This document shows positions 1-24,075 of a stretch of DNA of 24,137 nt, one piece after another (position 1 is the first letter of the stretch; every line of letters starts with the position of its first letter). Origin of the DNA: a virus (taxonomy: Duplodnaviria; Heunggongvirae; Uroviricota; Caudoviricetes). The position numbers were made by a program, and so were the translations under genes. Below the pieces are notes generated by a model. That model saw nothing but the letters and a program-made list of their open reading frames with translations. It was not told the origin of the DNA and ran no database searches. The DNA lies in the IMG/VR virus record IMGVR_UViG_2602041549_000015, positions 1 to 24,137 of that record; one strand, given 5' to 3'.

Positions 1-933
1 ATGGACAACGACAAAATTGATCAACACAGCGACGAAATTGAAGTTGAGAGCGAAGAAAAAGAGCGCGGCAAAAAAATAGAAATAGATGAAGACCGACTCC
101 CCTCCCGGGCGATGGCAATTCATGAGCATATCCGCCAGGATGGTGAAAAAGAGCTGGAACGCGACGCAATGGCGCTACTGTGGTCAGCCATTGCGGCGGG
201 TCTGTCGATGGGCGCTTCGTTACTGGCAAAAGGGATATTTCATGTCGAACTGGAAGGTGTGCCGGGCAGCTTCTTACTGGAGAATCTCGGTTATACCTTT
301 GGTTTTATTATCGTCATAATGGCCCGCCAGCAATTATTTACCGAAAACACCGTGACTGCGGTACTACCCGTCATGCAAAAACCGACAATGAGCAACGTCG
401 GCTTACTTATGCGATTATGGGGCGTCGTGCTGCTGGGTAATATTCTCGGGACAGGTATTGCTGCATGGGCATTTGAATATATGCCTATCTTCAATGAAGA
501 AACTCGCGATGCATTTGTCAAAATCGGCATGGATGTGATGAAGAACACCCCCAGCGAGATGTTTGCCAACGCGATCATTTCCGGCTGGCTGATCGCCACT
601 ATGGTTTGGATGTTTCCTGCTGCGGGTGCGGCAAAGATTGTGGTGATTATATTGATGACCTGGCTTATTGCACTGGGTGACACCACCCACATCGTTGTCG
701 GTTCTGTTGAAATCCTCTATCTGGTGTTTAACGGCACGCTGCACTGGAGCGATTTCATCTGGCCCTTCGCACTACCTACTTTAGCGGGGAACATCTGCGG
801 CGGCACCTTTATCTTCGCGTTAATGAGTCATGCACAGATTCGTAACGACATGAGCAACAAGCGTAAAGCAGAAGCACGCCAAAAAGCAGAACGTGCGGAA
901 AACATTAAGAAAAATGATAAAAACCCAGCATAA
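1..933 (+). CDS. yfdC: Formate/nitrite transporter (FNT) family inner membrane protein YfdC
   Basis: 310-aa ORF; translation matches my recollection of E. coli K-12 YfdC; several hydrophobic helices; yfdC is the known upstream neighbour of argW. Confidence 0.85.
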   Translation: MDNDKIDQHSDEIEVESEEKERGKKIEIDEDRLPSRAMAIHEHIRQDGEKELERDAMALLWSAIAAGLSMGASLLAKGIFHVELEGVPGSFLLENLGYTFGFIIVIMARQQLFTENTVTAVLPVMQKPTMSNVGLLMRLWGVVLLGNILGTGIAAWAFEYMPIFNEETRDAFVKIGMDVMKNTPSEMFANAIISGWLIATMVWMFPAAGAAKIVVIILMTWLIALGDTTHIVVGSVEILYLVFNGTLHWSDFIWPFALPTLAGNICGGTFIFALMSHAQIRNDMSNKRKAEARQKAERAENIKKNDKNPA

Positions 934-1008: not shown

Positions 1009-1083
1009 GTCCTCTTAGTTAAATGGATATAACGAGCCCCTCCTAAGGGCTAATTGCAGGTTCGATTCCTGCAGGGGACACCA
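1009..1083 (+). tRNA. argW: tRNA-Arg (anticodon CCU)
   Basis: 75-nt sequence GTCCTCTTAGTTAAATGGATATAACGAGCCCCTCCTAAGGGCTAATTGCAGGTTCGATTCCTGCAGGGGACACCA with acceptor stem GTCCTCT/AGGGGAC, anticodon loop CUCCUAA and 3' CCA; located between yfdC and the integrase as in E. coli. Confidence 0.85.
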
Positions 1084-1244: not shown

Positions 1245-2402
1245 ATGCTCACCGTTAAGCAGATTGAAGCAGCAAAGCCGAAAGAAAAACCATACCGCCT
1301 ACTCGATGGTAATGGCCTGTACCTTTATGTCCCTGTATCAGGGAAAAAGGTATGGCAGCTTCGCTACAAGATTGACGGTAAGGAGAAAATCCTGACTGTC
1401 GGAAAATATCCGCTTATGACTTTGCAAGAGGCAAGGGATAAAGCATGGACTGCGAGGAAAGACATCTCGGTCGGCATCGATCCGGTAAAGGCGAAAAAGG
1501 CTTCGTCTAACAACAATTCCTTTAGTGCGATTTACAAGGAATGGTACGAGCACAAGAAGCAAGTCTGGTCAGTAGGCTATGCAAATGAACTTGCAAAAAT
1601 GTTTGATGACGACATTTTACCTATCATCGGCGGCCTTGAAATTCAGGATATTGAGCCGATGCAACTACTGGAAGTAATCCGCAGATTTGAAGATCGCGGG
1701 GCAATGGAGAGAGCCAACAAAGCACGCAGAAGATGCGGCGAGGTTTTCCGTTACGCTATTGTCACCGGAAGGGCTAAATATAACCCGGCACCTGACCTTG
1801 CAGACGCCATGAAAGGATACCGCAAGAAGAACTTCCCGTTTCTTCCAGCAGACCAGATCCCTGCATTCAACAAAGCACTGGCAACATTTTCAGGAAGCAT
1901 CGTATCGCTCATTGCGACAAAAGTTTTACGCTACACAGCACTAAGAACGAAAGAGCTTCGTTCCATGCAATGGAAGAACGTCGATTTTGAAAACAGGATT
2001 ATCACTATCGACGCCAGTGTGATGAAGGGCCGCAAAATTCATGTGGTTCCTATGTCAGGCCAGGTGGTTGAACTTCTCACTACGCTAAGCTCAATAACCA
2101 AACCAGTCTCAGAGTTTGTTTTTGCCGGGCGCAACGATAAGAAGAAGCCAATCTGCGAGAACGCGGTATTGCTTGTGATCAAACAAATAGGCTATGAGGG
2201 TCTGGAAAGCGGTCACGGATTCAGGCATGAATTCAGCACAATTATGAACGAGCACGAATGGCCCGCTGATGCTATTGAAGTGCAACTGGCACATGCCAAC
2301 GGCGGATCTGTGCGCGGGATTTACAACCATGCTCAGTATCTCGATAAGCGCAGAGAAATGATGCAATGGTGGGCGGACTGGCTTGATGAAAAGGTGGAGT
2401 GA
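1245..2402 (+). CDS. intS: Tyrosine site-specific integrase, P4/IntS-type
   Basis: Track ORF 1209..2402 begins at a GTG; the ATG at 1245 gives MLTVKQIEAAKP..., the typical N-terminus of P4-like integrases and the 385-aa length I recall for K-12 IntS; transcribed away from the tRNA. Confidence 0.9.
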   Translation: MLTVKQIEAAKPKEKPYRLLDGNGLYLYVPVSGKKVWQLRYKIDGKEKILTVGKYPLMTLQEARDKAWTARKDISVGIDPVKAKKASSNNNSFSAIYKEWYEHKKQVWSVGYANELAKMFDDDILPIIGGLEIQDIEPMQLLEVIRRFEDRGAMERANKARRRCGEVFRYAIVTGRAKYNPAPDLADAMKGYRKKNFPFLPADQIPAFNKALATFSGSIVSLIATKVLRYTALRTKELRSMQWKNVDFENRIITIDASVMKGRKIHVVPMSGQVVELLTTLSSITKPVSEFVFAGRNDKKKPICENAVLLVIKQIGYEGLESGHGFRHEFSTIMNEHEWPADAIEVQLAHANGGSVRGIYNHAQYLDKRREMMQWWADWLDEKVE

Positions 2403-2493: not shown

Positions 2494-4677
2494 CTATATT
2501 ATGGAAGTAACAGTGCCATTTATAGTTGATTTTATTTGTGATGTTGGATTTGGCCTTACTTGCACTGTACCTCTATTACCAGATGCGCCAATAAAGACAT
2601 TATAGCCATTTATCTCATTAAAGTCTGAAAAAAGACTTACTGGAGCAGAATTTTGTGCAACTGGTGCAGCTGATGATGTCCCGTATCGCTTCAGTATGCC
2701 AGGCGTAACAGCTGCAGAAGCACCATCCCTCCTGCACGTAATATCCAGGTCAAACGTGTAACCATCAAACCCGAACTGTGTAGCATCCTGAAAAAATTTC
2801 ATAACTTCAGTGACTGAACCTCCAGCAGGTGCAACGTGATTGAAGCCAGAGAAAATCATCCGGTTAAATCTTTCATCCTGAGAAACAGAATCGAACGTCT
2901 TTTCAATACGAAGGCTGCTGAATCCATATACCCCATTCAAGATAATTGAATTTTGAGCACGAGTGTTCATTTTAATATCCAGCTTAGGCGCATTGTATAG
3001 GTCAATGCGTTCACCAACACTTCCAGAACGGTCTGTTATGTTTACCGAGATAGAAAACGTAGTGTCATTTCCTTCAATTTTTATAGATGAACGCCTGTCT
3101 ACTTCAATTGTAATAGCCGGTGAAGCCTCTGCTGTTGATGTTCCAATGACAGTCAAAGCTCTAACGTATTTTGTTATATACATCTTTGCCTCTTCGCTGT
3201 AGTTTCCTGCGATATAAGTTGCCTGACTGTCACCAATTCTTATCTCACCAGTTTCAATTGTACTTGAAATTACTGACGTCCCAATAATGGGAACTTCAAC
3301 CTTAGTCCCAGACTGGAACTCAGAAGTCATTGGTCTATCAAGTGTTATAACGTTTCCCGAGATTGCTGTGATACGACGTGTCTCTACACCTCCAGTTGAA
3401 TTGGTGAATGCAATTTCAAACAACGTATCAAAACCAGAAGCATCAGCAACAGTAACAGTGTTGTCATTTACATATGCTGTAGATGTCAGGGTTGTGCTCA
3501 TACCTTCAATAGACAAAGTACACTGATTGTTAGCGCTGCTCCCAATGTAACCCATTAATTTGATAGAGTTATTTCTAACGCGAACACCATACTTAGTTCT
3601 GGTGGAGCCATTTGTTGTTCCTTGCGAATGACCATGCCAATTAATAACCAGATGTAAAAGATCATAATTACTGATGCGGTGATCAATTGATTTATTTCTA
3701 ATAGTAGCATAAGGAGCTGTGTATACGGCTCTTGCTGATGCACTAGCGCCATTATTAGAAATGTTTCCATTTACGGTGAAACCTTCAACTGTTTGGTGCC
3801 AGTGGAGACGATCTCTGCTCCTGTCGCGAGGATCAATTCCCACATGGTGCATCGATATGTTAGATGACGTTGACATGATTATTGTTGCGTCATTTCCAGC
3901 TCCTGAAAAAATAAAACCACGGCGATCAACATCTAAATCAAACTTATCAGAAAAGTAAACTCCTGACGGGAATGTGAGTTTGCTCATAATCTGATTTGCG
4001 CGAGCAACTCTACAAGCCTCGGCAATCGCTGCGGAATTTTTTTCCGGGTCTGAACTTCCAAAGCCAAACTCTGAATAGTCCATCTCAGATGTAAGGATTA
4101 AATTAGCAAAATAACCATTTGGAAGATTGAGTGAATAAGTATTATCTATCTTCTCTAATCCAACATACCATTCAGACTTCACTTTTATTCCGTGCTGGTT
4201 CATGTATGTGAAAACTGTTATTTTTTCAATACCAGTAAAGTCTTTCTGCAGCAACTGAGAAACGCTTTGAATAATGTAAGGTTTTGTCTGATTAAAATCC
4301 TGTGCTGTTTCATCTAGTATAAGCAATTGGTTCTTAAATTGGTCTGGATCATACTTCAGCACATTCGGAAAATAGAACTGCTTCGCCCCATATGCATCGT
4401 ACACAGCCATAGAATGGCCTTGCACAGTTACGAATTTGGCAATCTGCCCGTTATATACAGGGTAACCAGCGGCGTTAATGATGATTGGTTGCGAAACGGG
4501 AACATGAGAGCCGTCTTCGTTCTCTACATAAACCTGAATCTGGTTTTCTGGATTTACCGGGTCAGTGTCAATTTTACCGATATAAATTTTGCCATTGGCT
4601 ACGGCTTTAAAAGAACGAGCCATAGTGAAGAGTTGCGAAGGCATCGATACAATCACATTGGCTGTAATATCTGTCAT
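2494..4677 (-). CDS. Tailspike protein: P22-type head-binding N-terminal domain with a different receptor-binding domain
   Basis: 727 aa; first ~115 aa ([46 protein letters not shown]...VLKYDPDQF) match the conserved head-binding domain of P22/Sf6/HK620 tailspikes as I recall them; the remainder is Ser/Thr/Asn/Gly-rich like a beta-helix but matches no tailspike I can recall. Confidence 0.85.
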
Positions 4678-6245: not shown

Positions 6246-6503
6246 ATGGCTAGAGATGATCCGCACTTTAACTTCCGTATGCCTTTGGAAGTAAGAGAAA
6301 AATTGAAATTAAGAGCCGAGGCTAACGGAAGGTCAATGAACTCTGAGTTATTACAAATCGTTCAGGATGCTCTCTCAAAGCCATCACCGATTGCAGGCTA
6401 TCGCAACGAAGCTGAACGCTTGGCTGATGAACATTCGGATATCGTAAAAAATATGGTATTCGAAACTTTAAAAAAACTTTATGGAAAAGAAAAGAATGAG
6501 TAA
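6246..6503 (+). CDS. mnt: Mnt repressor (ribbon-helix-helix)
   Basis: 85-aa track ORF MARDDPHFNFRMPLEVREKLKLRAEANGRSMNSELLQIVQDALSKP... closely matches P22 Mnt as I recall it. Confidence 0.9.
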   Translation: MARDDPHFNFRMPLEVREKLKLRAEANGRSMNSELLQIVQDALSKPSPIAGYRNEAERLADEHSDIVKNMVFETLKKLYGKEKNE

Positions 6504-6765
6504 TAAAGAGCTTGTTAAAAAATCAAATAACTGTGTCGATGCATATGCTGACTCATTTGGATACTCTTCGTTTGGTGACGGTTCCCAGCGATTAGGTTCA
6601 ATTTCTTTTTTTCATAATGTAACTGAATGGCCTGTTGATGAAAGCGGTGATGTTGAAAACATAAAGTACAATATTGCCACCATTAGAATGCCTGAAGAAT
6701 TGATGCTTAAATTGGCGGACTTCATTCGCGACCAACATTATAAGGCTAAAACAAACGAGTCGTAA
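6481..6765 (+). CDS. Hypothetical small protein (94 aa; 89 aa if started at the ATG at 6496), first gene after mnt
   Basis: Track ORF overlapping the mnt 3' end; no recognisable family; C-terminus YNIATIRMPEELMLKLADFIRDQ looks like a beta-strand followed by a helix. Confidence 0.5.
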   Translation: MEKKRMSNKELVKKSNNCVDAYADSFGYSSFGDGSQRLGSISFFHNVTEWPVDESGDVENIKYNIATIRMPEELMLKLADFIRDQHYKAKTNES

Positions 6766-6768
6766 TCA

Positions 6769-7218
6769 ATGATGAAACACGATTATTACGAAGCTCCAAA
6801 TCTAACTGAAAAGCTTGAACAAGCGGAAAAATCATCATCTTTGTACACAAATCCAATTTCTCAGTCATCAGGAATGTCTGGCATGAATATGGGCATGCTA
6901 CAATCAAGTGGTGGTGGAGCTGGGAGTAACAACATGCTTGAGGCTAGGGTTGCACGGTTAGAGGCAGATGTTGAAAACATTAAGACCAATCTATCTGAGG
7001 CAAGGTCTGACATCTCTCGTTTGCGTGATATCTCAGCTGATACATCCAGAGATGTTGCGGTGGTCCTGCAAAAAATAGTAGATGTAGACGAAAAATTATC
7101 AAAAAAACCGAGTAAGAGCGAAGTCCAGACATTGATATCTTCTGCAGTAAACAAGCAAATACTATGGACCATAGGGACTGGATTTGCTCTTTTAGGGATA
7201 GCTAAATATATATTTTAG
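6769..7218 (+). CDS. Hypothetical tail-anchored membrane protein with coiled coil (149 aa)
   Basis: Track ORF; Gly/Ser/Met-rich N-terminal segment, central heptad-like region, single C-terminal hydrophobic helix ILWTIGTGFALLGIAKYIF; starts 3 nt after the preceding stop. Confidence 0.55.
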   Translation: MMKHDYYEAPNLTEKLEQAEKSSSLYTNPISQSSGMSGMNMGMLQSSGGGAGSNNMLEARVARLEADVENIKTNLSEARSDISRLRDISADTSRDVAVVLQKIVDVDEKLSKKPSKSEVQTLISSAVNKQILWTIGTGFALLGIAKYIF

Positions 7219-7287
7219 CTCACCTCATCAGCTATCTTCTTGTTCCATTCACTCAGTGCCACTGCAAGGAAAACTAAGGAGGTTAGT

Positions 7288-7677
7288 GTGAAGCGATTTC
7301 TTGCTGGTATGTTTTTATTCATATCTTTTGGGGCTACAGCAGAATGCTGGGTTGTTGGAGATATGCGCGGAATAAGCTATTCAGAACGAAATAATTTCCA
7401 ACCGGAAGAAGATGGTTTTAGTGGAACATTTATCATTAAGACAAGCGGTGAAGATGCCAGCATCACATATTCTGGGACGGATGCTGGCGGCATGGCTTAC
7501 AAAGCATTGTCTAAAAACTCCATCATAGGAATCGGCGCGAATGGCGAAACTCAACGAGTTATCGACTCATGGGTAATACATCCTAATGGAACAGTTTTAA
7601 TGTCGAAAACCATTTCTGGTTATGGAAACATGGATTCAACCAAAGCTTTTGTTGGAAAAGTAAAAAGAAAATGTTAA
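7288..7677 (+). CDS. Hypothetical secreted (periplasmic) protein with Sec signal peptide
   Basis: GTG start at 7288 preceded by a strong AAGGAGG ribosome-binding site; N-terminus KRFLAGMFLFISFGATA then ECW fits a signal peptidase I site; mature part ~110 aa with Cys near both ends; the track's upstream ATG (7240) has no ribosome-binding site. Confidence 0.55.
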   Translation: MKRFLAGMFLFISFGATAECWVVGDMRGISYSERNNFQPEEDGFSGTFIIKTSGEDASITYSGTDAGGMAYKALSKNSIIGIGANGETQRVIDSWVIHPNGTVLMSKTISGYGNMDSTKAFVGKVKRKC

Positions 7678-11663: not shown

Positions 11664-12119
11664 CTATCTCCCGTGATTCAGGAAGTCGATTAGTTCTTCG
11701 CGTGTGGCGCTGTAAAAAGTCACGTCATCCACGCCTTTGAAGTATTTCTTGATGGTTCCTACACGCTTAAGGCCAATCATTGCGCAGTACATCTGACCGT
11801 GGCGGAATTTGCGTGCAGCAAATGATGTGACGCACTGAACGGTGGTGTTGGTCAAAATGTATCGCCAGAACGCCATCCCTATTTCCTTGCTGAATCCGCG
11901 AATCTCTGGCAGGTACATGGCGTGGCAATCAAAGGTCAGCGGCTGAATCTCCTGATAATAAACAATTCCGCCGAACTGCCCGTGCACGCTCACCTCAAAG
12001 TAACGGCAATCATGTTTGTAGTCGTATCCATCACCGTTGTTGCTTCCGGCAATAATGTCAGGGTGATTTCCGACTGCTTCGATCAGGTCGATGTTTCGCG
12101 TTGGTTTGAACTGAATCAT
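11664..12119 (-). CDS. gp14-like virion assembly protein (called by position)
   Basis: 151-aa ORF between the tail needle and gp7 genes, the position of gene 14 in P22; I cannot confirm the sequence from memory. Confidence 0.6.
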   Translation of the reverse strand: MIQFKPTRNIDLIEAVGNHPDIIAGSNNGDGYDYKHDCRYFEVSVHGQFGGIVYYQEIQPLTFDCHAMYLPEIRGFSKEIGMAFWRYILTNTTVQCVTSFAARKFRHGQMYCAMIGLKRVGTIKKYFKGVDDVTFYSATREELIDFLNHGR

Positions 12120-12967
12120 TACTGCTCCGCGATTATCTTGATGGTTGTGGCAGTAAACGCCGCACCATTTGACTGAATGGTTAACGTACTGCCATTTGTG
12201 GCAAGAAAGCCGTCTTTATCCACGCTGAAGAACGTAGCTAACAGGATGTTGTCGGTTGTTGTCGCCGCATTACGACTGCTGACCAACGTGTCAGGAACAG
12301 AGCCGGAAAAGGTTAGCTGCATTGACCTGTTGGCGGTTCCGCTGGGCCACGTCCCGACGATCGACAGCTTGAAGAACAAGGTTTTGTTCTCGTTGAACAC
12401 AACCATCTTGTTGTTAACGGTGTCGAAGAATGGTGCCAACGTGCCGGATGACGGCGTGAGCGTTTTCAGCAGGCTAACAAGGTTGGTCGGCGCTGTCGGG
12501 ATGGTTACAGATACGCCAGAGTAAACAACCTCTGACTTCTTGCGAGTAGTGGCATACTCCAGAGCATCAATGCGCGTTTCATGGTCTGAAACCTGCAACT
12601 CCAGCGACTGAACTCTGGTATCAAGCGACGCAATATCGCTTTCATTCTGAGCGATTCGCGTTTCATGGTCCTGAAGAGTTGATTCTGCCTGGCTGATTCG
12701 CTCCTCATGATTAACAAGCGTTGCTTCCGCAGCAGAAATTCGCTGCTCATGGTCAGCGAGAATCACATCCTGCTCATCGTTCCTGACTTGTGCGTCATAA
12801 GCGCCCTGTCCGGCCTCGTTGGCCTTGTTCGCCACATTACCAACATCAGTACCCTGTGCGATAACGTAAAGCAGATACGACTGCGAGAAGATATTGCGTG
12901 GAAGTACTGATGTGTCGAGTCGTGTAGCCTGAATGATTACCGGCACATTGAGATTAGAATCCGCCAT
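12119..12967 (-). CDS. Tail needle protein gp26 with C-terminal knob domain
   Basis: 282 aa; N-terminus [43 protein letters not shown]... matches the gp26 N-terminal domain, followed by heptad repeats and a ~130-aa C-terminal domain absent from the 233-aa P22 gp26 (Sf6-type knob architecture). Confidence 0.85.
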
Positions 12968-14385
12968 TACTCAATCCTTATCTGAGCGCCAGACAGAGTG
13001 ACAGGTGACTTCGTGATAACGCGCAATTTGAAGCCGACATTTTTCCTGATGCGCCCGACTCGCTTCCACAAAACGCGTTTGTCGTAAACGAACGGTTCAT
13101 TCTGCTCAATCATCTGCTCACGCCCGTAATTTATGCCGTCAGTGGTTGCAGAGAGGAACAGGCGGTCGGCGTACTGCGCAACGCCAGTTGACGATTCAAC
13201 TTCAAGGTCGAAAACTCTGGCGTTATCCGCTTTGAACAACGGAGTAAACAGCAGGTGTTCCTGTTGCTTGTCGTACTGGCTGCTGATGTCGAATTGCAAT
13301 TTCCCGGTCACGGACTCCAGTTTATCGCCGCACGTTATCTGATTTCCTTCGTAAATGAAGTCGATAGCGCGGTACACATCGTCATACAGACCTGTTTTCA
13401 GCACACACCATTGCGGACCATTGGCGCTTGAAGATGCGTCGTACACGAGAACATGGCGTGCAAGATGGATAATCAGCAACTCATGCGCATCAAATCGCAG
13501 AGATTCCATCACGCCATCAGCCAGTTCATCAGCAGTGTAGGAGCGGAGTATTTTCTCAATGCTCGCGCTGGCGATTGGTGACACCTGACCAGAGCCGATG
13601 ATGTATACAGACGGCGCACCCGTTGCCGGATTGCTGATGAACGCATACGAATCAGCAAACTGCGTTTTGCAGTAGGTTCCGGCAATGCCTTTCTGCACCA
13701 TTAACGATGGCTGGGCGACATACAAAGCAGCACCAACGGTGGTTGCCCCAGTCAGGGAAAAATACTCAATCGTCGATGAACCAAAACAGACGATGAAGTC
13801 TCGCCATGTTCCGATGCCAATGATGCCGTCAGGCTGCGATTCTGCACGATATTGTGCGCTGTAGCGGTCAGGATGCGATTCGTCTTCAAGGTCAGTGATA
13901 AACCATGAATCAGTTCCGTCTTTTGACCACGCATAACGCCCACGTAAACGCGTAATGTCGCGAACCGAACCTAACTCATACTGAGTGAATCCGCTGTCTG
14001 TAGGCCAGTTTGAGACTGTTTTAACCGTGCCATCATAGCGATACTCGACCAGTTGACCATTAACACCTACCGCCTGTGATGTTCGACCATGCGCCATTGA
14101 TACGCGACCACTTCCGGCGACGTCACCGACTTCGCTTTCTCCTTTGTACAGTTTGCCACCACACACGCGATAAACAGCATTCTGCGCCATGTTGTACTCG
14201 ACGCCGCGAGATACACCGTTCACATCAGAGCGTTTGGCAATGCCAGGGAATGAGCGAAGATATCCGCTGCTGTTCAGGATTTCTTTGGGTGTAGCCAGCA
14301 TATTCACTGGCAGATAGTCGATATAGTCGGCGTTTCGAAAGTCTTTGCCGACACCTTTCATAAGCGGAAGTTGCTGAATCGGCAT
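12967..14385 (-). CDS. Tail accessory factor gp10
   Basis: 472 aa, same length as P22 gp10; sequence and position match. Confidence 0.9.
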
Positions 14386-14886
14386 TTATTCGCCCCCGTT
14401 ATCGCAAGGTTCCTTCCGGTGGAAGTAATTCCAACCATTCCACTTCGCCAACTGGTTACCGCTACCAACAGGCATACGGTTTGGATAACCGGACTTACAT
14501 TTAGCGGCTTTTGCTCTGTCCATTGCAGACAGTTTGACGAGTCGCTCTTTCCCGTATCTGGCAGTGGTTATAAGTTTTGCTGGCGCTTCCAGCGCATAAT
14601 CCGGAGCAATGCGGCAGGCAAGGTTGAAAATGACGGCATTGATGGCGTTATTTGATAAACCGTGCTCATCGCCCTGATCCGGAGCGACATCTGCATCAGC
14701 AAAAATGTAGCCAACGTTGATACCAGGTGACGCATCACCGCCAAGCCATTCAGCCATCATCATTTCAAGGTCGTTGACGCCGTCTTCCATAGACTGCGGT
14801 TCGACATCGGTTAACGTGGCATTTGATGCCACACCGAGCTTACGTAATGCCGCAAGAACTAAATCACCCTTCGTTGTCAGGTTCAT
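14386..14886 (-). CDS. Tail accessory factor (head completion protein) gp4
   Basis: Track ORF 14386..14967; starting at the internal Met ([33 protein letters not shown]...) gives 166 aa, the length of P22 gp4; the upstream QSQSQSQ extension comes from the hexanucleotide repeat read in another frame. Confidence 0.85.
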
Positions 14887-15106
14887 CTGCTGCCGCCTTA
14901 GGTTTTCGACCAGGCTTTTTACGCTGTTTTTCTTCTGGCTCTGGCTCTGGCTCTGGCTCTGCAACATCCTTCAGAAGATCATCAGGATGTGCAAACCAGC
15001 CAGCATCCAGATATTCCTGAAGCTCTTCGGCTTTCACGATTTCAAAGTCGTATCCAACGCCTTTCCATTTCTTCATGTCGCCATGACGAAAGATCATGTG
15101 TGTCAT
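14864..15106 (-). CDS. Hypothetical small protein between the coat and gp4 genes (80 aa) with an EPEPEPEP repeat and basic tail
   Basis: Internal ATG of track ORF 14864..15286 ([32 protein letters not shown]...), preceded by GGAGA; the longer track ORF would overlap the coat gene 3' end. Confidence 0.5.
14935..14961. repeat. Tandem hexanucleotide repeat (CTGGCT) x4.5
   Basis: Seen directly on the plus strand; encodes EPEPEPEP in the 80-aa ORF and QSQSQSQ in the overlapping frame. Confidence 0.8.
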
Positions 15107-15120
15107 GCTTGTCTCCAGAT

Positions 15121-15144
15121 AAAAAGGGAGCCGAAGCTCCCTCT
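15121..15144 (-). terminator. Terminator-like hairpin immediately after the coat gene (possible attenuator)
   Basis: On the minus strand GGGAGC-UUCG-GCUCCC followed by UUUUU, between the coat stop (15150) and the next start (15106). Confidence 0.5.
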
Positions 15145-15149
15145 GGTTA

Positions 15150-16445
15150 TCACGCGGTCTGATTAGGCAGACCAACACCAATTGCTTCTGGTCGTACAGC
15201 ACATGCTGAATACCACACAGCAATACGGCACTTACCAGACAGAGTGTTGATATCACCCTGCGTTGCGAAGATGCCGTTAACACCAATACCAGGAATGCTG
15301 AAGGAAGACGTTTTCATGCCAGCAAACAGTTCATGGGTTACCGGGATCGGCTGAGACAGAAGGCGGATTGAGTCATCAGCCCAGAACACGTTAGCGGTGG
15401 TTGTTGCCACGTTCAGAACGTTTACCGGAGTGGTATCAGCAAGAGAGGTGTTTACGTTAGCGTAAGCCTTCTCTTCTTTTGTCAGTGACGCGTCATCCAG
15501 TGCAATCGGTTTCGGCGTGATTTCGATGTGAGTACCATCGATCACACGGGTGATTGAGAAAGTAGCATCATCAGTTAGCACGTTCTTCGCCATCTGAGAC
15601 AGGAATTTCACACCAGTGAAACTGATTTTGTCGCCGCGCTTAAATCCGGTGGTGGAGGATACGGTCACCGTTGCAACACGGTTGTCGACGTTCTCTTTGT
15701 TACCATCGGTATCAAGGGTGTATGCCTGCGGCTTAAACTTCTGCGCACCAGAAACAGTTACACCAGTAGCGGTTGACTTGGTAACTGCCGGAAGTTTCGG
15801 TGAGCGAAGAATTTCATCAAAGCCAGCAATCTGACGCTGAATAGTACCGTTGCGATACGCTTCTTCAGGAACGCGACCGAAGATGTCACCATCTACCAGG
15901 TTGCGGCCTGCTTTGCGGTAATCATCAGGGTTCAGGAAGTAACTGATGCCCATATCGCGGTTTAGCTCACGGGAGAACATCAGGCGCTCTGCATCAGACA
16001 CAAAATCCCAGCCAGACAGGCCAGTAGATGGACCAATTGCGCGGGTATCGTGAACAACAAGTGAGCCCATTTCAGTTGCCTGTTTGGCAATCGCTGACTC
16101 AATGTTATTCGCCAGTTTTTTGGCGGATGCCTGGATGCGGCGACGGTAAGAACGCTCATCACGCAGGTCATCTGCACGAAGCTCGAAGAAATCGTTATCC
16201 GGATCACCCATGTTGCATTTCACGGAGAGCTCCAGAATCCCTGTTGCGTTGCCAGTTAAATCCCAGCCAGTCTGGGTTGGCGCTTCCTGCTCAACAGGCA
16301 TCCACACGGTGTTGCTTGAACGCTGCATGGATTCTGCCGGAGGGGTGTATTTTGTCACTTTGGACGCCATTGGCGTCAGGTTCTGGACGGTTTCGATGAT
16401 TTCATCCAGAGCATACGTGACCAGTTGACCTTCATTTAATGCCAT
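15150..16445 (-). CDS. Major coat protein gp5
   Basis: 431 aa; matches P22 coat protein gp5 as recalled. Confidence 0.95.
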
Positions 16446-17356
16446 TATCGAATTCCTTTATTCAGTTGCGCCTTAAGCTTGCGGTATGTCTCTACATCCC
16501 CTTTGTTTGCTGCCGCTTCCATCTGCTTTTCAATCGCAGATATATTTGCAGCAACAGCGTGTCCCTGAATGGGTTCATCAGGTAGCGGGGCTTCTGAAAC
16601 AGGTTTGGCTCGAGGCTTGAGAGTTAAACGTTCTGACAGTCGAGTGAGTTCAATCAGCGCGGATTGCCCGTCCATCGCCAGCAACTGGCGTGTTTTCTCA
16701 GGATTAGCACCAAGGTGATACATGAGAGCGGCGGATTTCTCCGGGAAGAGGCGCATGATGTCGGCACCGACTGCTTGCGGCACCAGTTGCATGAATGCAT
16801 CCTCTTTCTCCTGATAGTCAGGGATATTGAGCTTTTCCGCTGCGTCGTAGTGCTTACGGGCTGCCTCGACGTATTGCGCTGATTGCTGGGTGAACTCCTG
16901 AGTTTTGCGACCCTGCTCGGCGACAGCCTGGCTTCGCGCGTCCATAGCCTTGATCTGCCATTCACTGTTTGCCTGCTGGAAGGCAGCCAGTGCGCGGCTC
17001 TGGTCATAGTCGTACTTAGCCAGTGCGTCTTCGGAAAGATAATCGTTAGGGTCTGGTTGTTTTGGTAACTCAGGGTTCACCCGCAGGTGCTCCGGCAACT
17101 CTCCCCGCTTAACCGCTTCCATCTGTTGCTCAAGCTCACGCTGGCGTTTGCGTTCGATGCGGCGACGGGCAAATTCAGCATTAGTTGCCGGGTCTTGTTT
17201 TGGTTTCTCATCGTCTTTCAGGACAATCTCGAAGCCTTCTTCCTGACCTGCGTTGTCGTTGGCATTATCGACAACTAAGCCATCAGCAGATGCCGCTGCA
17301 TGATTGCCGGGCAGGGTTAATTCTTCAGAAGCCTGAATGTCGGTGGTTTGGTCCAT
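16445..17356 (-). CDS. Scaffolding protein gp8
   Basis: 303 aa, same length as P22 gp8; sequence matches as recalled. Confidence 0.95.
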
Positions 17357-17369
17357 GATTAACTCTCTC

Positions 17370-19535
17370 TTATTGAGGTGTCTCGGCTACTCCGCCGGAG
17401 GGGATTTGAACTTGACGCATAAGATTCGCGAAATCCATGCGTTGTGAATGAGTCTGGTCTGCATCTTTAAGAAGCAGCTCAGCGTTAGCACGAGCATCTT
17501 TGCTGCGCTGTTGCTGGAATTGACCTACGAGCTTGAGGTACTCACGCAGTTCTGCCTGCTTGTCGAGGTCCATATTGTTGAATATTTCTGCAATCTTCGC
17601 GGCGTTGAGTTGGTTTTGGGCTTCAACCTTGGCGGCCTCAACCTGAATCTGCGCCTGTTGGTTCTCTGCCTTGAGCAATTCAGCCTGACCTTGCAGAAGG
17701 ATACCCTGCGCCTGAATTTGCTCTGCTGATGGCTGCTGCGGCTGTTGTTGTGCCTGCTGTACCATCTCCATCTCTTCAGGTGTTTCTGGTTTCTTCAGCC
17801 CCATCATCACCAGTTGCTTGTTAGCGTACTCTCGCATCATCTCGACGCCTTTACCGTCAAGCAGCGTGAAGTATTGCAGCATCAGCATCTGGAACTCTGG
17901 AGTACCTTGCGGAACCTTGGTGAGCAACTCCTGAATCTCTGCGCGGTTCTGTTCCTTCATACTCTGGAAGGATGGTCCAACGTCCGTATAGCACTCATAG
18001 CGACCACGAATGTCGTTGAGTGTGACCACATTGCCGGACTGGTAATCGACAACTTGCGCATAGAGTTGAACGTCTTTCTCGCTTCCATCTTCAAGTGTCA
18101 GCGTTACATGACGAGGAACGTCATAAATATCGTTGACCATTGAGGCATAAATCTCGCCATCACGTCGCATTGCGGTAGCCAGGTTATCCTGAAACACGTA
18201 TGTCTCAAGGTCTGCCCGCATGTTCAGTTGATTGACAGTATCGAAAGCGACCTGGCCATTTGCCGCCTGCGCATCAACGCCAAGACTAGCCACCTCTTTC
18301 ACTGCGTTGGTGGCTGCCTCAAGCATGTAAGCGTTGGCTTGCGGCACTTCAGGGTTTTCCATGTAGGAGATTGGACCAATCGGCAGGTCGTTACCGTTTT
18401 CATCGGTCCTGTTCTGCAGATAGTACGGATAGTCATCATTTCCACCGTACATGTATTCGTAGCCTTCGATTTGCTCAGGGAAGAAGGTCGGTTTCTTCTT
18501 CGGTGAGCGAGCAACAATATCGGCGTTGAATGACATGATCATGTTACGAAGGCGTTGACCGTCTTTCGTCAGCCTTACCACGCCCTCGTAGCACTCCTTG
18601 TCACCAGCGAATGACCATTCGCCGTACACAGGAACGATTGGGATATGCTCTCCGGCTATCTTCTCGCGGTCTTTCAGTATCTGCGTGCAGGTGATGATCG
18701 ACTTATACACACGCCGACGCTTGACCTTACGCTCTGCTACCTTAATGAATCCACGATTAGCCAGGTCGTCGATGACGTCTTTGATATCCTGCTGGTAATA
18801 GCTGACCGGCTCACCTGTCAGCGGGTCGCGGTAGATGAAGACTTTCTCTTTCTTCTCTTCGACCTCGTAATACTCAGCGACGTAGACGACATCATTCGAT
18901 ACCCACGGAAACAGCCATGTATCGTTCGGATTCTGGAAAGATGGCAAGGTGTCAGGATCAATACCGTAATCCTCTGCGAACTCTTTCCAGCCATTGCGCG
19001 ACAAGGCGTTAATCACCGTGCAGTGCTTAGCGTCGCTCTTATCCATCTGCTTGCTGTTGGCGTCCCATATGACGTGTGAGCAGGCTTCATGGATTGGAAG
19101 GCGTCGGATTACCTGATTGTTGCTTGTTGGGTCGTTGTCTTCGTACTGGGTGACCAGACGCCATGCACCAACGCCGGACTCTATCTGCTCACGAACGCCA
19201 ACGTTAACGGCAATTTTTGCCGTGTTATGGCGCATATCAGTACGATACATCCCCATCAGCACATCGGCAGCATCAGGGTTAGCTCCGTCTTTTGGTCGGA
19301 AGAGAACGTCGATAGGATTCCGGCGCATCTCTGCGACCAGCTTCCTGACCACCGGGCGAACAACATCGAATTGTCCGCGATATTGCAGGGTCGTGTAGTT
19401 TGATAGCCAGTCATCCCATTGCGACACTCGGCTAAAATACAGGTCATTTGTCGCCTCGGTTCTGGCTTCATCGCTCGCCATCCAGTCCGCGTCAAACTTA
19501 CACAGAATGGAATTGAGTCTGTTTTCGTCGGCCAT
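17370..19535 (-). CDS. Portal protein gp1
   Basis: 721 aa; matches P22 portal gp1 as recalled, including the long C-terminal Gln-rich helical barrel region. Confidence 0.95.
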
Positions 19536-21035
19536 TTAAGTTCTCCGTGCGATGGGCCTGATTGGGGCTGGTATCTTTTTCTCTTTTGGTTTTTTGATGT
19601 CGCGCATCATTTTTGCGAAGCGGCGCATCATGTAGGCATAGCGAACGGCGGAGAGAACGTCATCGTTAAGCTTGACGATTTTCCCGTTTTCATCACGGTG
19701 ATAGAGGCGGAATTCCTCAAAGAATGGCTCACAGGTGTTGAATACTTTGAAGCGACCATCGAGCATCATGTCGCGCAATTCAGTGATGCCAGGCTCCACA
19801 GCATTACCGCCATCAGGCCATGTCGCATGCTCCTGCAACATCATAAAACCAGCGTCTGCATACTGCCCTTTGAGCTGCTCACCGCCGCCCTTCTCATGCT
19901 GGTTTCCGTCATGAGGCCATGCTGTTGGCACTTTATGCGCCCATGATTTAACCGCTCCCCATGCCTGAACGGCTGTTTTTTCTTTCGCCTTCCACACGCG
20001 TGAAACGTAGATTGTGTCTGCGTCCTTATCCCACCAAAGCTGAACCTGCGCCTGAGGGTGATCCCATCCGAAATCCATCCCGCCAATTACGTAGAAGTGA
20101 TCAGGACACTCGAACGGCTGACACTTAATCGTCTCTTCCGGTATCTGGAAGATTCGACCGCTACCCATCGTAGGAATACCGCGAGCACGCGCCTCTCTCT
20201 CATGCTCGGGATAGGATGCGATGATTTGCTCTTTCTGTTCGTCTGTGTAGTGCTCAGCGTCATAGATGGTCATGTTGACCACTTTCTGCGACTTGCTGGG
20301 ATTCTTCAGGAACTTGGTAACAACGTCAGACATCCCCATCAGCGGGGTAAACGTCAGAATTGAGAATTGCCCGTATTTGTTGGTACGGGTAAGACCTTCG
20401 CCATAAATGCTGTATGGTGGCTCTTCGTCAAACCACACGCCGTGGATTGTGTCACCCTGCCAGCGAGCACGGCCTTGCGAGTATGGCTTGAAGTAGCAGA
20501 TTGAAATGCCATCTTCAACGCCATCAGCCGTGTGATGCTTAACCAGAAGATGATCAACAAGGTTCGGATAGAAAGGAGACTTCTTCCAGCTAATGATGTC
20601 TTCTTTCGGTATGGAACCGTAGCCAGGCTCATCATTCTCTTCGATACGACCGCACAGGATGCGTTGAGTCGTTTTGGTTACAGTCTCGTTTGTCTCGCCG
20701 CCAATCCAGAAGACAACAGGCTCATAGAAACGCTTACCTTTCCACTCACCGCCATATTTACCATCAGCAGGATAGCCTTTTGTGCCAGGATAACGCCCGG
20801 TAAGGTGAAACGCGACTTCAGCAGCACCAGTAAATGACTTACCAAGCTGGTTACCAGCCATAAAACATCGCTCTGGATAGTCATGCCCGGCGTCGATGAA
20901 CTCACGCTGTTTGCTGTATGGCGTAAATTCATATAGCAGGTGTGTGTTACGGTAGTTCTCTTCTTCTTCGAGTAGCTCGAGCAATTCGATTTGCTCTTCG
21001 TCGCTCAAGTTATCAAGAATCGCGTCCAGTTCCAC
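19536..21035 (-). CDS. Terminase large subunit gp2
   Basis: 499 aa, same length as P22 gp2; directly upstream of the portal gene; 5' end overlaps the small subunit gene. Confidence 0.95.
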
Positions 21036-23607: not shown

Positions 23608-24075
23608 TCATCGAAGGCATTGCGTCCTGATGTATTCCTGAAGCGTTCTCAGTGCTGTTTGGTCGCTGATGATTCCGTCCCGGATACCGAGAACGTTTCG
23701 TCCAGCAACTGGAGAGAGTTCGACGGTGGCATCATTGCCCATGCCGGAGGCGCTGGAGGTTTCGGCTGAGGATGGCATAGGGCATTTTCCTTTGACGAGC
23801 ACCCTGCCACCATTATCAAGCTTGCGACGAAGAGCATCATTTTCAGCTTTCGCATCAGCTAACTCCTTCGTGTATTTTGCATCGAGCGCAGCAACATCAC
23901 GTTGGCGCACCTGCATGTCAGTAATTGTCGAGTTCGCCAGCTTCAGTTCTCTGGCCTTGTTATCGCGCTGCTCTTTGTAGGCGATTGCGTTATCACGGTA
24001 ATGATTAACAGCCCATGACAGGCAGACGATGATGCAGATAACCAGAGCGGAAATAATCGCGGTGACTCTACTCAT
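23608..24075 (-). CDS. Rz: Rz i-spanin
   Basis: 155 aa; N-terminus [34 protein letters not shown]... matches lambda Rz as recalled; start overlaps the upstream stop (ATGA). Confidence 0.9.
23649..23855 (-). CDS. Rz1: Rz1 o-spanin lipoprotein, embedded in the +1 frame of Rz
   Basis: 68 aa; [19 protein letters not shown] lipobox signal followed by a Pro-rich segment ([11 protein letters not shown]), as in lambda Rz1; lies entirely inside Rz. Confidence 0.8.

Follow-up and report, generated by a model that had tools for sequence, protein, structure and literature searches.

The window analysed in this work, i.e., the whole 24,137-nucleotide stretch taken from the IMG/VR virus record IMGVR_UViG_2602041549_000015 (Caudoviricetes), encodes a tailspike of 727 amino acids (aa). 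It is a P22/Sf6-like prophage spike furnished with a receptor-binding module of the family known from tailspike protein 4 (TSP4) of phage AV101, most likely binding and cutting the O159 O-antigen of Escherichia coli or a very close variant of it. The spike is WP_023486182.1 / ESS89206.1 of E. coli CE516, with an exact match on scaffold KN711437.1 of the assembly GCA_000806275.1. This strain is an enterotoxigenic E. coli (ETEC) of the sequence type ST1490, positive for heat-labile toxin (LT) and CS6/CS8, isolated in Beijing from a patient with diarrhoea (PMC4415261).

Head-binding domain and the module junction

Residues 1-113 of the spike were recognized as the Pfam domain Head_binding (PF09008) with the profile covered in full (1-113 of 113; E = 3e-66, 221 bits at a cutoff of 24), and the protein displays the ~110-aa PF09008 N-terminal domain ending in a YDPDQ motif that marks P22-like tailspikes. 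The closest solved sequence was that of Sf6 gp14 (7sg7), aligned over aa 1-125 (E = 1e-65) with few substitutions up to the conserved LKYDPDQF, followed by the N-domains of the P22 tailspike (2vky, 2xc1, 1lkt; E from 1e-44 to 1e-51). This comparison with PDB sequences covers Sf6 and P22, the solved HK620 structures having no N-domain. Over aa 1-113 the identity was ~93% to Sf6 gp14 (7sg7, 2vbm) and ~75% to P22 gp9 (2xc1, 1lkt), which bears out an earlier sequence-only reading of the window that had assigned the first ~115 residues to a head-binding domain of the P22/Sf6 type. In both of these phages, as in the window, the spike gene closes the late operon beside int and att, and all three proteins are built from a head-binding domain followed by a linker and a beta-helix; in contrast, sequence similarity of the window spike to the other two is undetectable past aa ~125.

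The alignments obtained in the full-length PDB search ended at aa ~115-125. Among 5,426 complete E. coli genomes, 1,113 matched the gene (megablast), and 1,110 of these shared only nucleotides ~1828-2184 of the query, corresponding to codons 1 to ~114-119. The break after aa ~115 falls where P22-like tailspikes are well known to recombine: the end of the PF09008 profile, the ends of the PDB matches and the 1,110 genomes sharing the 5' part only all agree with the sequence-only reading, which had seen here a classic module-exchange boundary. That reading had further described the following ~600 aa as rich in Ser, Thr and Asn, and indeed these residues make up 27.3% of aa 120-727 versus 16.8% of aa 1-119 (12-22% in the products of most other genes of the window; 27.7% in the tail needle). 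GC content at third codon positions (GC3) was 30.9% in the receptor-binding module (2497-4320) versus 44.5% in the head-binding part (4321-4677), and 51-59% in the needle, gp10, coat, portal and terminase genes (12119-21035). The module is foreign in composition, and its lower GC3 suggests acquisition from a donor of lower GC content.

The receptor-binding module belongs to the AV101 TSP4 family

Taken alone, aa 120-727 matched neither Pfam nor NCBIfam, hit none of the PHROG families at E ≤ 0.01, and in a phmmer search of all PDB sequences retrieved only a chance ribosomal protein (E = 0.59). Consequently, no similarity to the endorhamnosidase domains of P22 or Sf6, to the endo-N-acetylglucosaminidase of HK620 or to the endosialidase domains of CUS-3/K1F was found in this PDB sequence search, and the near-identity to Sf6, HK620, CUS-3 or P22 gp9 that would contradict the sequence-only reading is absent. 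When the PDB was searched with a profile built from the family alignment, all matches were to anchor domains (PF18668-type) at the N-termini of other family members, the receptor module itself being unmatched, and a scan of contigs of species-representative genomes with the family alignment revealed no relative. As it has no sequence relationship with the P22, Sf6, HK620 and endosialidase-type domains, the receptor-binding part differs in specificity from those phages, in support of what had been proposed from the sequence alone.

Sequence databases gave a different answer. In a BLASTP comparison with AV101 TSP4 (WJJ54146.1), 450 of 578 residues were identical (78%) with 1 gap, aa 150-727 of the window spike corresponding to aa 516-1092 of TSP4; a full-length, high-identity alignment of this kind is one mark of a TSP4-type module. 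The receptor-binding domain is therefore not an unrecognised one, as had been supposed; the description of the C-terminal part as unmatched stands for curated libraries and solved structures but fails for sequence databases, which contain homologues from phages with 68-78% identity. Ten records among 50,697 phage genomes covered at least 86% of the module (tblastn). The identities were 77.9% for the Agtrevirus AV101, 78.0% for the TSP of the Salmonella Kuttervirus LPST94, ~73% for the Phapecoctaviruses P3322 and Ro121c4YLVW (tail spike AVZ45320.1), 68.5% for the tail fibre of the Kayfunavirus ST31 (ARW56875.1) and 36-42% for three remoter phages. Homology to these non-P22 relatives started at different points depending on the partner (aa ~122 for PD205, ~129 for Ro121c4YLVW and P3322, ~150 for AV101, LPST94 and ST31), thus indicating that at least two junctions have been used.

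Purified AV101 TSP4 produced translucent zones on O159 E. coli only, and pre-treatment of an O159 host with this protein decreased the AV101 titre by ~5 logs; the authors interpreted both effects as O-antigen degradation (Sorensen et al., 2023; PMC10791037). The relatives of TSP4 that they named, LPST94, ST31 and Ro121c4YLVW, are virulent phages only, none being found in prophages, and the receptors of these three phages had not been determined experimentally (PMC10791037). AV101 TSP4 and the window spike have the same receptor-binding module and probably the same O159 target, whereas their N-terminal parts are wholly unlike: TSP4 (1,092 aa) carries an anchor with XD and TD domains for the branched complex of Ackermannviridae, and the window spike the 119-aa head-binding domain of P22. 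Likewise, AV101 is a virulent myovirus and the window element a temperate P22-like podovirus. In ST31, Ro121c4YLVW and LPST94 the module follows other anchors (the T7-type tail-fibre domain PF03906 with PF18668, or PF18668 alone). Literature searches on the accession and on O159 tailspikes of the P22-like kind yielded only the AV101 papers. Of modest novelty, then, are the presence of a TSP4-type module in E. coli prophages of the temperate P22-like kind, which the AV101 work apparently did not remark, and the genomic evidence, presented in the next section, that links the named host of ST31 and the lysogens to O159.

The top PHROG of the full-length protein, phrog_8280, is annotated as 'tail spike protein with colanic acid degradation activity', its match being drawn over aa 1-563, and would speak for colanic acid or a capsule, instead of the O-antigen, as the target. 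Because aa 120-727 alone had no PHROG match, the score of phrog_8280 derives essentially from the head-binding domain, and the label was rejected. The activity of TSP4, moreover, followed the O-serogroup. Considering both facts, we regard a colanic acid or capsule target as extremely improbable.

The family is small and widely dispersed. A search of 5.8 billion clustered proteins gave 46 family clusters at 90% identity, one of them a Citrobacter braakii protein of 843 aa, and when 1.84 billion cluster representatives were scanned exhaustively with HMMER, only 27 were retrieved at E ≤ 1e-3; relatives were also present on seven IMG/VR contigs. Five of the 46 clusters carry PF09008, with modules 85-99% identical and a uniform length of 726-727 aa, and the rest carry PF18668, PF18668 together with PF03906 (T7-type fibre N-terminus), PF03160 or no recognized anchor. 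In unrelated phages the module thus follows at least four further types of N-terminal anchor, which adds a case of receptor-binding modules being exchanged among temperate podoviruses, T7-like phages and large myoviruses; in concept, this is textbook tailspike modularity. The 90% cluster of the window protein has 113 members, and the named ones among those listed are all from E. coli. The TSP4-type family is one without a solved structure or a curated profile.

When six P22-type alleles were aligned with TSP4, the differences fell into patchy blocks. The window allele differs from that of isolate 44 at aa ~490-570 and from that of strain EC17CM7 at ~600-727, the alleles P0002, P0003 and P0005 resemble TSP4 at ~300-470, and some of these blocks (~300-470, ~490-570, ~600-727) are closer to AV101 TSP4 than to one another. 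Such block-wise differences point to repeated recombination inside the module family and not only at the head-binding junction.

O-antigen clusters of the hosts

The module was found in only 3 of the 5,426 complete E. coli genomes, also at blastn sensitivity, and the O159 wzx-wzy block in only 17 of them. The two distributions are associated: 2 of the 17 O159 genomes carry the tailspike module versus 1 of the other 5,409 (Fisher p = 3e-5, or p = 0.006 when the two Hungarian isolates, NZ_CM194531.1 and NZ_CM194529.1, are counted once). The tailspike gene of NZ_CM194531.1 is 94.8% identical (DNA) to that of the window and lies in the same yfdC / tRNA-Arg / intS / tailspike arrangement, while its O-antigen cluster contains wzx and wzy of the 'O159 family' (PGAP annotation), gmd-fcl-gmm-manC-manB and an epimerase gene adjoining ugd. 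The sister isolate NZ_CM194529.1 has the same O159 cluster and, at the same site, a tailspike gene of the same 94.8% identity. Also among the 17 O159 genomes is that of E. coli ST130, and the record of phage ST31 lists E. coli ST130 as the host, the identity of this host with the sequenced strain resting on the name; ST130 is a Shiga toxin-producing E. coli supplied by China CDC (PMC6266442).

As for CE516 itself, ST1490 ETEC from Shenzhen were typed as O159:H34 (PMC8581654), and through this sequence type we infer that CE516 is O159. Its O-antigen locus lies ~365 kb from argW and outside the 283-kb CE516 scaffold containing the window, and an exact look-up of the O159 Wzx and of a glycosyltransferase (GT4) protein of the O159 cluster listed no CE516 accession. 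The accession of the ST130 GT4 protein, WP_023486666.1, is numerically near WP_023486182.1 of CE516, which is only a hint. Across the carriers, the O159 cluster is thus present in NZ_CM194531.1 and NZ_CM194529.1 and in ST130 as the host of ST31, is absent from EC17CM7, and is assigned to CE516 via ST1490 only, so that the host evidence mostly agrees with O159.

Several observations weigh against O159 as the target and would fit a spike of the same architecture recognizing another O-antigen, with the 22% divergence from TSP4 reflecting a specificity switch and the O159 hosts being partly coincidental. The third carrier, EC17CM7 (NZ_CP190027.1), has a gene 96.2% identical to that of the window at the same site, and its spike is identical over most of the beta-helix (aa ~212-600), with three substitutions before aa ~600 (V10, H171, A213) and most differences in the C-terminal ~125 residues, yet its O-antigen cluster (L005:9962-24775) is a non-O159 one of the rfbBDAC type, with different wzx and wzy, found in only 2 of the 5,426 complete genomes and accompanied by a wzzB interrupted by IS26. 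Phages with O121 E. coli or Salmonella as propagation hosts also contain relatives. Finally, an 843-aa protein of Citrobacter braakii has a C-terminal module 77% identical to that of the window, and the C. braakii Wzx is only 62% identical to the O159 Wzx, which is also a hint that Citrobacter has an O159-like O-antigen, with phages to match. The EC17CM7 mismatch possibly reflects an O-antigen locus replaced after lysogeny or a spike tolerating another glycan; replacement of O-antigen clusters after lysogeny is common in E. coli. Ro121c4YLVW and LPST94 possess several receptor-binding proteins, and their isolation hosts therefore say little. Considering, in addition, that three independent lines lead to O159 (the TSP4 experiments, the genotype of the named host of ST31 and the two prophage carriers with O159 clusters), and that the link from ST1490 to O159:H34 points in the same direction, we consider a target other than O159 unlikely.

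In two unrelated O159 genomes, NZ_CM194531.1 (L008:1169-2183) and ST130 (NZ_CP043478.1; L018:501-1515), the O159 wzy is flagged as 'frameshifted' by PGAP. The idea that the flag in isolate 44 marks a phage-resistance mutation was rejected, as the phage-sensitive ST130 has the same flag, which is probably a feature of the reference or annotation model or else a conserved real frameshift.

Predicted fold and candidate active-site residues

The AlphaFold2 model of the monomer, based on a 28-sequence alignment, had a predicted local distance difference test score (pLDDT) of ~90 for aa 132-727; the head-binding domain was poorly modelled because few of the aligned sequences contain it. A structure prediction looking for a beta-helix had been proposed in the sequence-only reading, and it yielded a confident right-handed parallel beta-helix. 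The predicted fold is that of the C-terminal part of P22-like tailspikes and, at the fold level, of the pectin-lyase-like beta-helix superfamily. The helix preceding the first rungs contains the near-invariant residues E220, R223, V224, R226 and A227 and may serve as a capping helix. A small beta insertion at aa ~398-465 is possible, as judged by the secondary-structure string and conservation. It is in the C-terminal domain (aa ~591-727) that the alleles of CE516 and EC17CM7 vary.

The model resembles tailspikes and depolymerases with no close solved relative. Foldseek similarity to the helices of Sf6, HK620 and P22 was generic only (E from 1e-4 to 1e-7, 8-15% identity), and 8-16% identity was found both to solved beta-helix spikes and depolymerases, namely Klebsiella K2-2 TSP (8iq9), CBA120 TSP2 (5w6p, 6w4q), Det7 gp208 (6f7k) and WceF (6tgf), and to beta-helix enzymes, namely AlgE4/AlgE-type epimerase-lyases (2pyg, 8ja4) and GH28 polygalacturonases. 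At such identities, and with no single structure standing out, neither the position nor the chemistry of an active site can be transferred to the window spike. Five acidic residues, D263, D339, E475, E495 and D559, are invariant across sequences diverged to 28% identity and are candidates for catalysis or substrate binding.

Whether the module cleaves the polysaccharide backbone at all may be questioned, since it could also act as a pure adhesin or as an enzyme removing side groups, such as a deacetylase. The translucent zones and the infection block obtained with the 78%-identical TSP4, interpreted as O-antigen degradation, argue otherwise, as do the five acidic residues conserved at such divergence; besides, most studied beta-helix tailspikes are depolymerases. 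A non-cleaving module thus appears very unlikely.

The O159 O-antigen contains L-fucose, N-acetylglucosamine and a uronic acid, a composition which fits the fucose-pathway genes and the ugd-adjacent epimerase gene of the cluster and makes a lyase possible. One may go further and suppose that this rare family represents a mechanistically distinct depolymerase, for instance a lyase attacking an O159 repeat that contains uronic acid, or an enzyme with its active site around the conserved insertion at aa ~398-465, or that specificity is dual in EC17CM7 or set by the C-terminal domain; the probability of this proposal is, in our estimation, similarly low to that of a target other than O159.

Proposed mode of action

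Taken together, the module identity, host genotypes and predicted fold favour an O159-directed tailspike, for which the following sequence of events may be proposed. Recombination at the standard junction immediately past LKYDPDQF would have brought in the module. In P22 and Sf6, the head-binding domain fixes the spike to the tail hub of gp4 and gp10; by this analogy, and given the domain identity, six homotrimers would attach to the gp4/gp10 hub of the window phage via aa 1-119. The beta-helix module (from aa ~122 or ~150 to 727) would then bind the O159 O-antigen, as the 78%-identical homologue and the host genotypes indicate, and, judging by the TSP4 clearing zones, would depolymerize it, acting as a hydrolase or a lyase. 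By cutting the O-antigen the virion would work its way through the lipopolysaccharide layer to the outer membrane, which the knobbed tail needle would subsequently engage, as may be expected from what is known of Sf6.

O159 is a common ETEC serogroup, to which about one quarter of the ETEC isolates belonged in a series from China (PMC8581654). A compact single-spike protein of a temperate phage that recognizes O159 could be used as a reagent for typing or capture, or be exchanged into engineered phages as a module, and TSP4-type modules in P22-like prophages of O159 strains constitute a plausible reservoir for exchange.

Prophage setting

The element carrying the tailspike is an ordinary Sf6/P22-like (Lederbergvirus-type) prophage at argW. 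The gene order is yfdC, tRNA-Arg(CCT), integrase, tailspike, ant, arc/mnt, three small open reading frames (ORFs), gp16, gp20, gp7 and gp14, followed by the Sf6-type knobbed tail needle, gp10, gp4, coat, scaffold, portal, terminase and Rz/Rz1 (Table 1). The hub genes gp4/gp10/gp26 and the end of the late operon near immI and int, which distinguish P22-like genomes, were identified by Pfam, PHROGs and the tRNA-Arg att site.

Table 1. Positions of the tailspike, its domains and the neighbouring genes in the window
Feature	Position	Strand	Basis
Tailspike gene	2494..4677	minus	Uninterrupted ORF, 727 aa and stop codon, ATG start (ORF list)
Head-binding (particle-attachment) domain, aa 1-119, ends in conserved LKYDPDQF	4321..4677	minus	Pfam PF09008; PDB N-domains
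Junction/linker, aa 120-149	4231..4320	minus	tblastn query starts, BLASTP, sliding identity across 28 family members
Receptor-binding module common to AV101 TSP4, aa 150-727	2497..4230	minus	BLASTP, 78% identity, 1 gap
Small N-terminal beta-rich domain, aa ~132-200 (predicted)	4078..4284	minus	AlphaFold2, pLDDT 78-94
Helix before the first beta-helix rungs, aa 211-227	3997..4047	minus	AlphaFold2 secondary-structure string
Predicted right-handed parallel beta-helix, aa ~233-590 (many short strands in succession)	2908..3981	minus	
Possible small beta insertion, aa ~398-465, ends KVEVP (approximate boundaries)	3283..3486	minus	Strands 431-440, 443-446; high conservation
C-terminal beta-sandwich-like domain, aa ~591-727	2497..2907	minus	Long strands 600-616, 639-650, 660-668 and others
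yfdC, adjoins tRNA-Arg	1-933		
tRNA-Arg(CCT), argW, prophage integration site	1009..1083	plus	ARAGORN; same gene order in two other genomes
Prophage integrase, IntS-like	1245..2402	plus	Phage_integrase Pfam domains; phrog_1
Three small ORFs between mnt and gp16	6481-6765, 6769-7218, 7240-7677	plus	phrog_4231, 3556, 2651 (PHROGs lacking a functional annotation)
Tail needle, Sf6-type knob	12119-12967	minus	Pfam Phage_tail_NK; phrog_1030 'tail needle knob', E = 2e-135
gp10-like tail-hub gene	12967-14385	minus	Pfam Phage_stabilise
gp4-like tail-hub gene	14386-14967	minus	Pfam P22_Tail-4

The integrase and tailspike genes are convergent, with their stop codons 91 bp apart (2403-2493), and this gap contains no oac or gtr serotype-conversion gene. 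P22 and Sf6 carry an O-antigen-modifying module (gtrABC or oac) at this position between spike and int. The lysogen of this prophage may therefore lack protection through serotype conversion.

The tail needle (282 aa) is of the long Sf6 type with a C-terminal knob, not of the shorter P22 type. Among the three small ORFs, a hydrophobic stretch lies at the C-terminus of one, and the N-terminus of one resembles a signal peptide; P22 has sieA at this place between mnt and gp16, and the three are possibly superinfection-exclusion or moron genes. At the edge of the window, an Rz-like ORF (23608-24075, minus strand) with an embedded ORF in another frame (23649-23855, minus strand) and a lipoprotein-like start of the latter look, by eye, like an Rz/Rz1 spanin pair.

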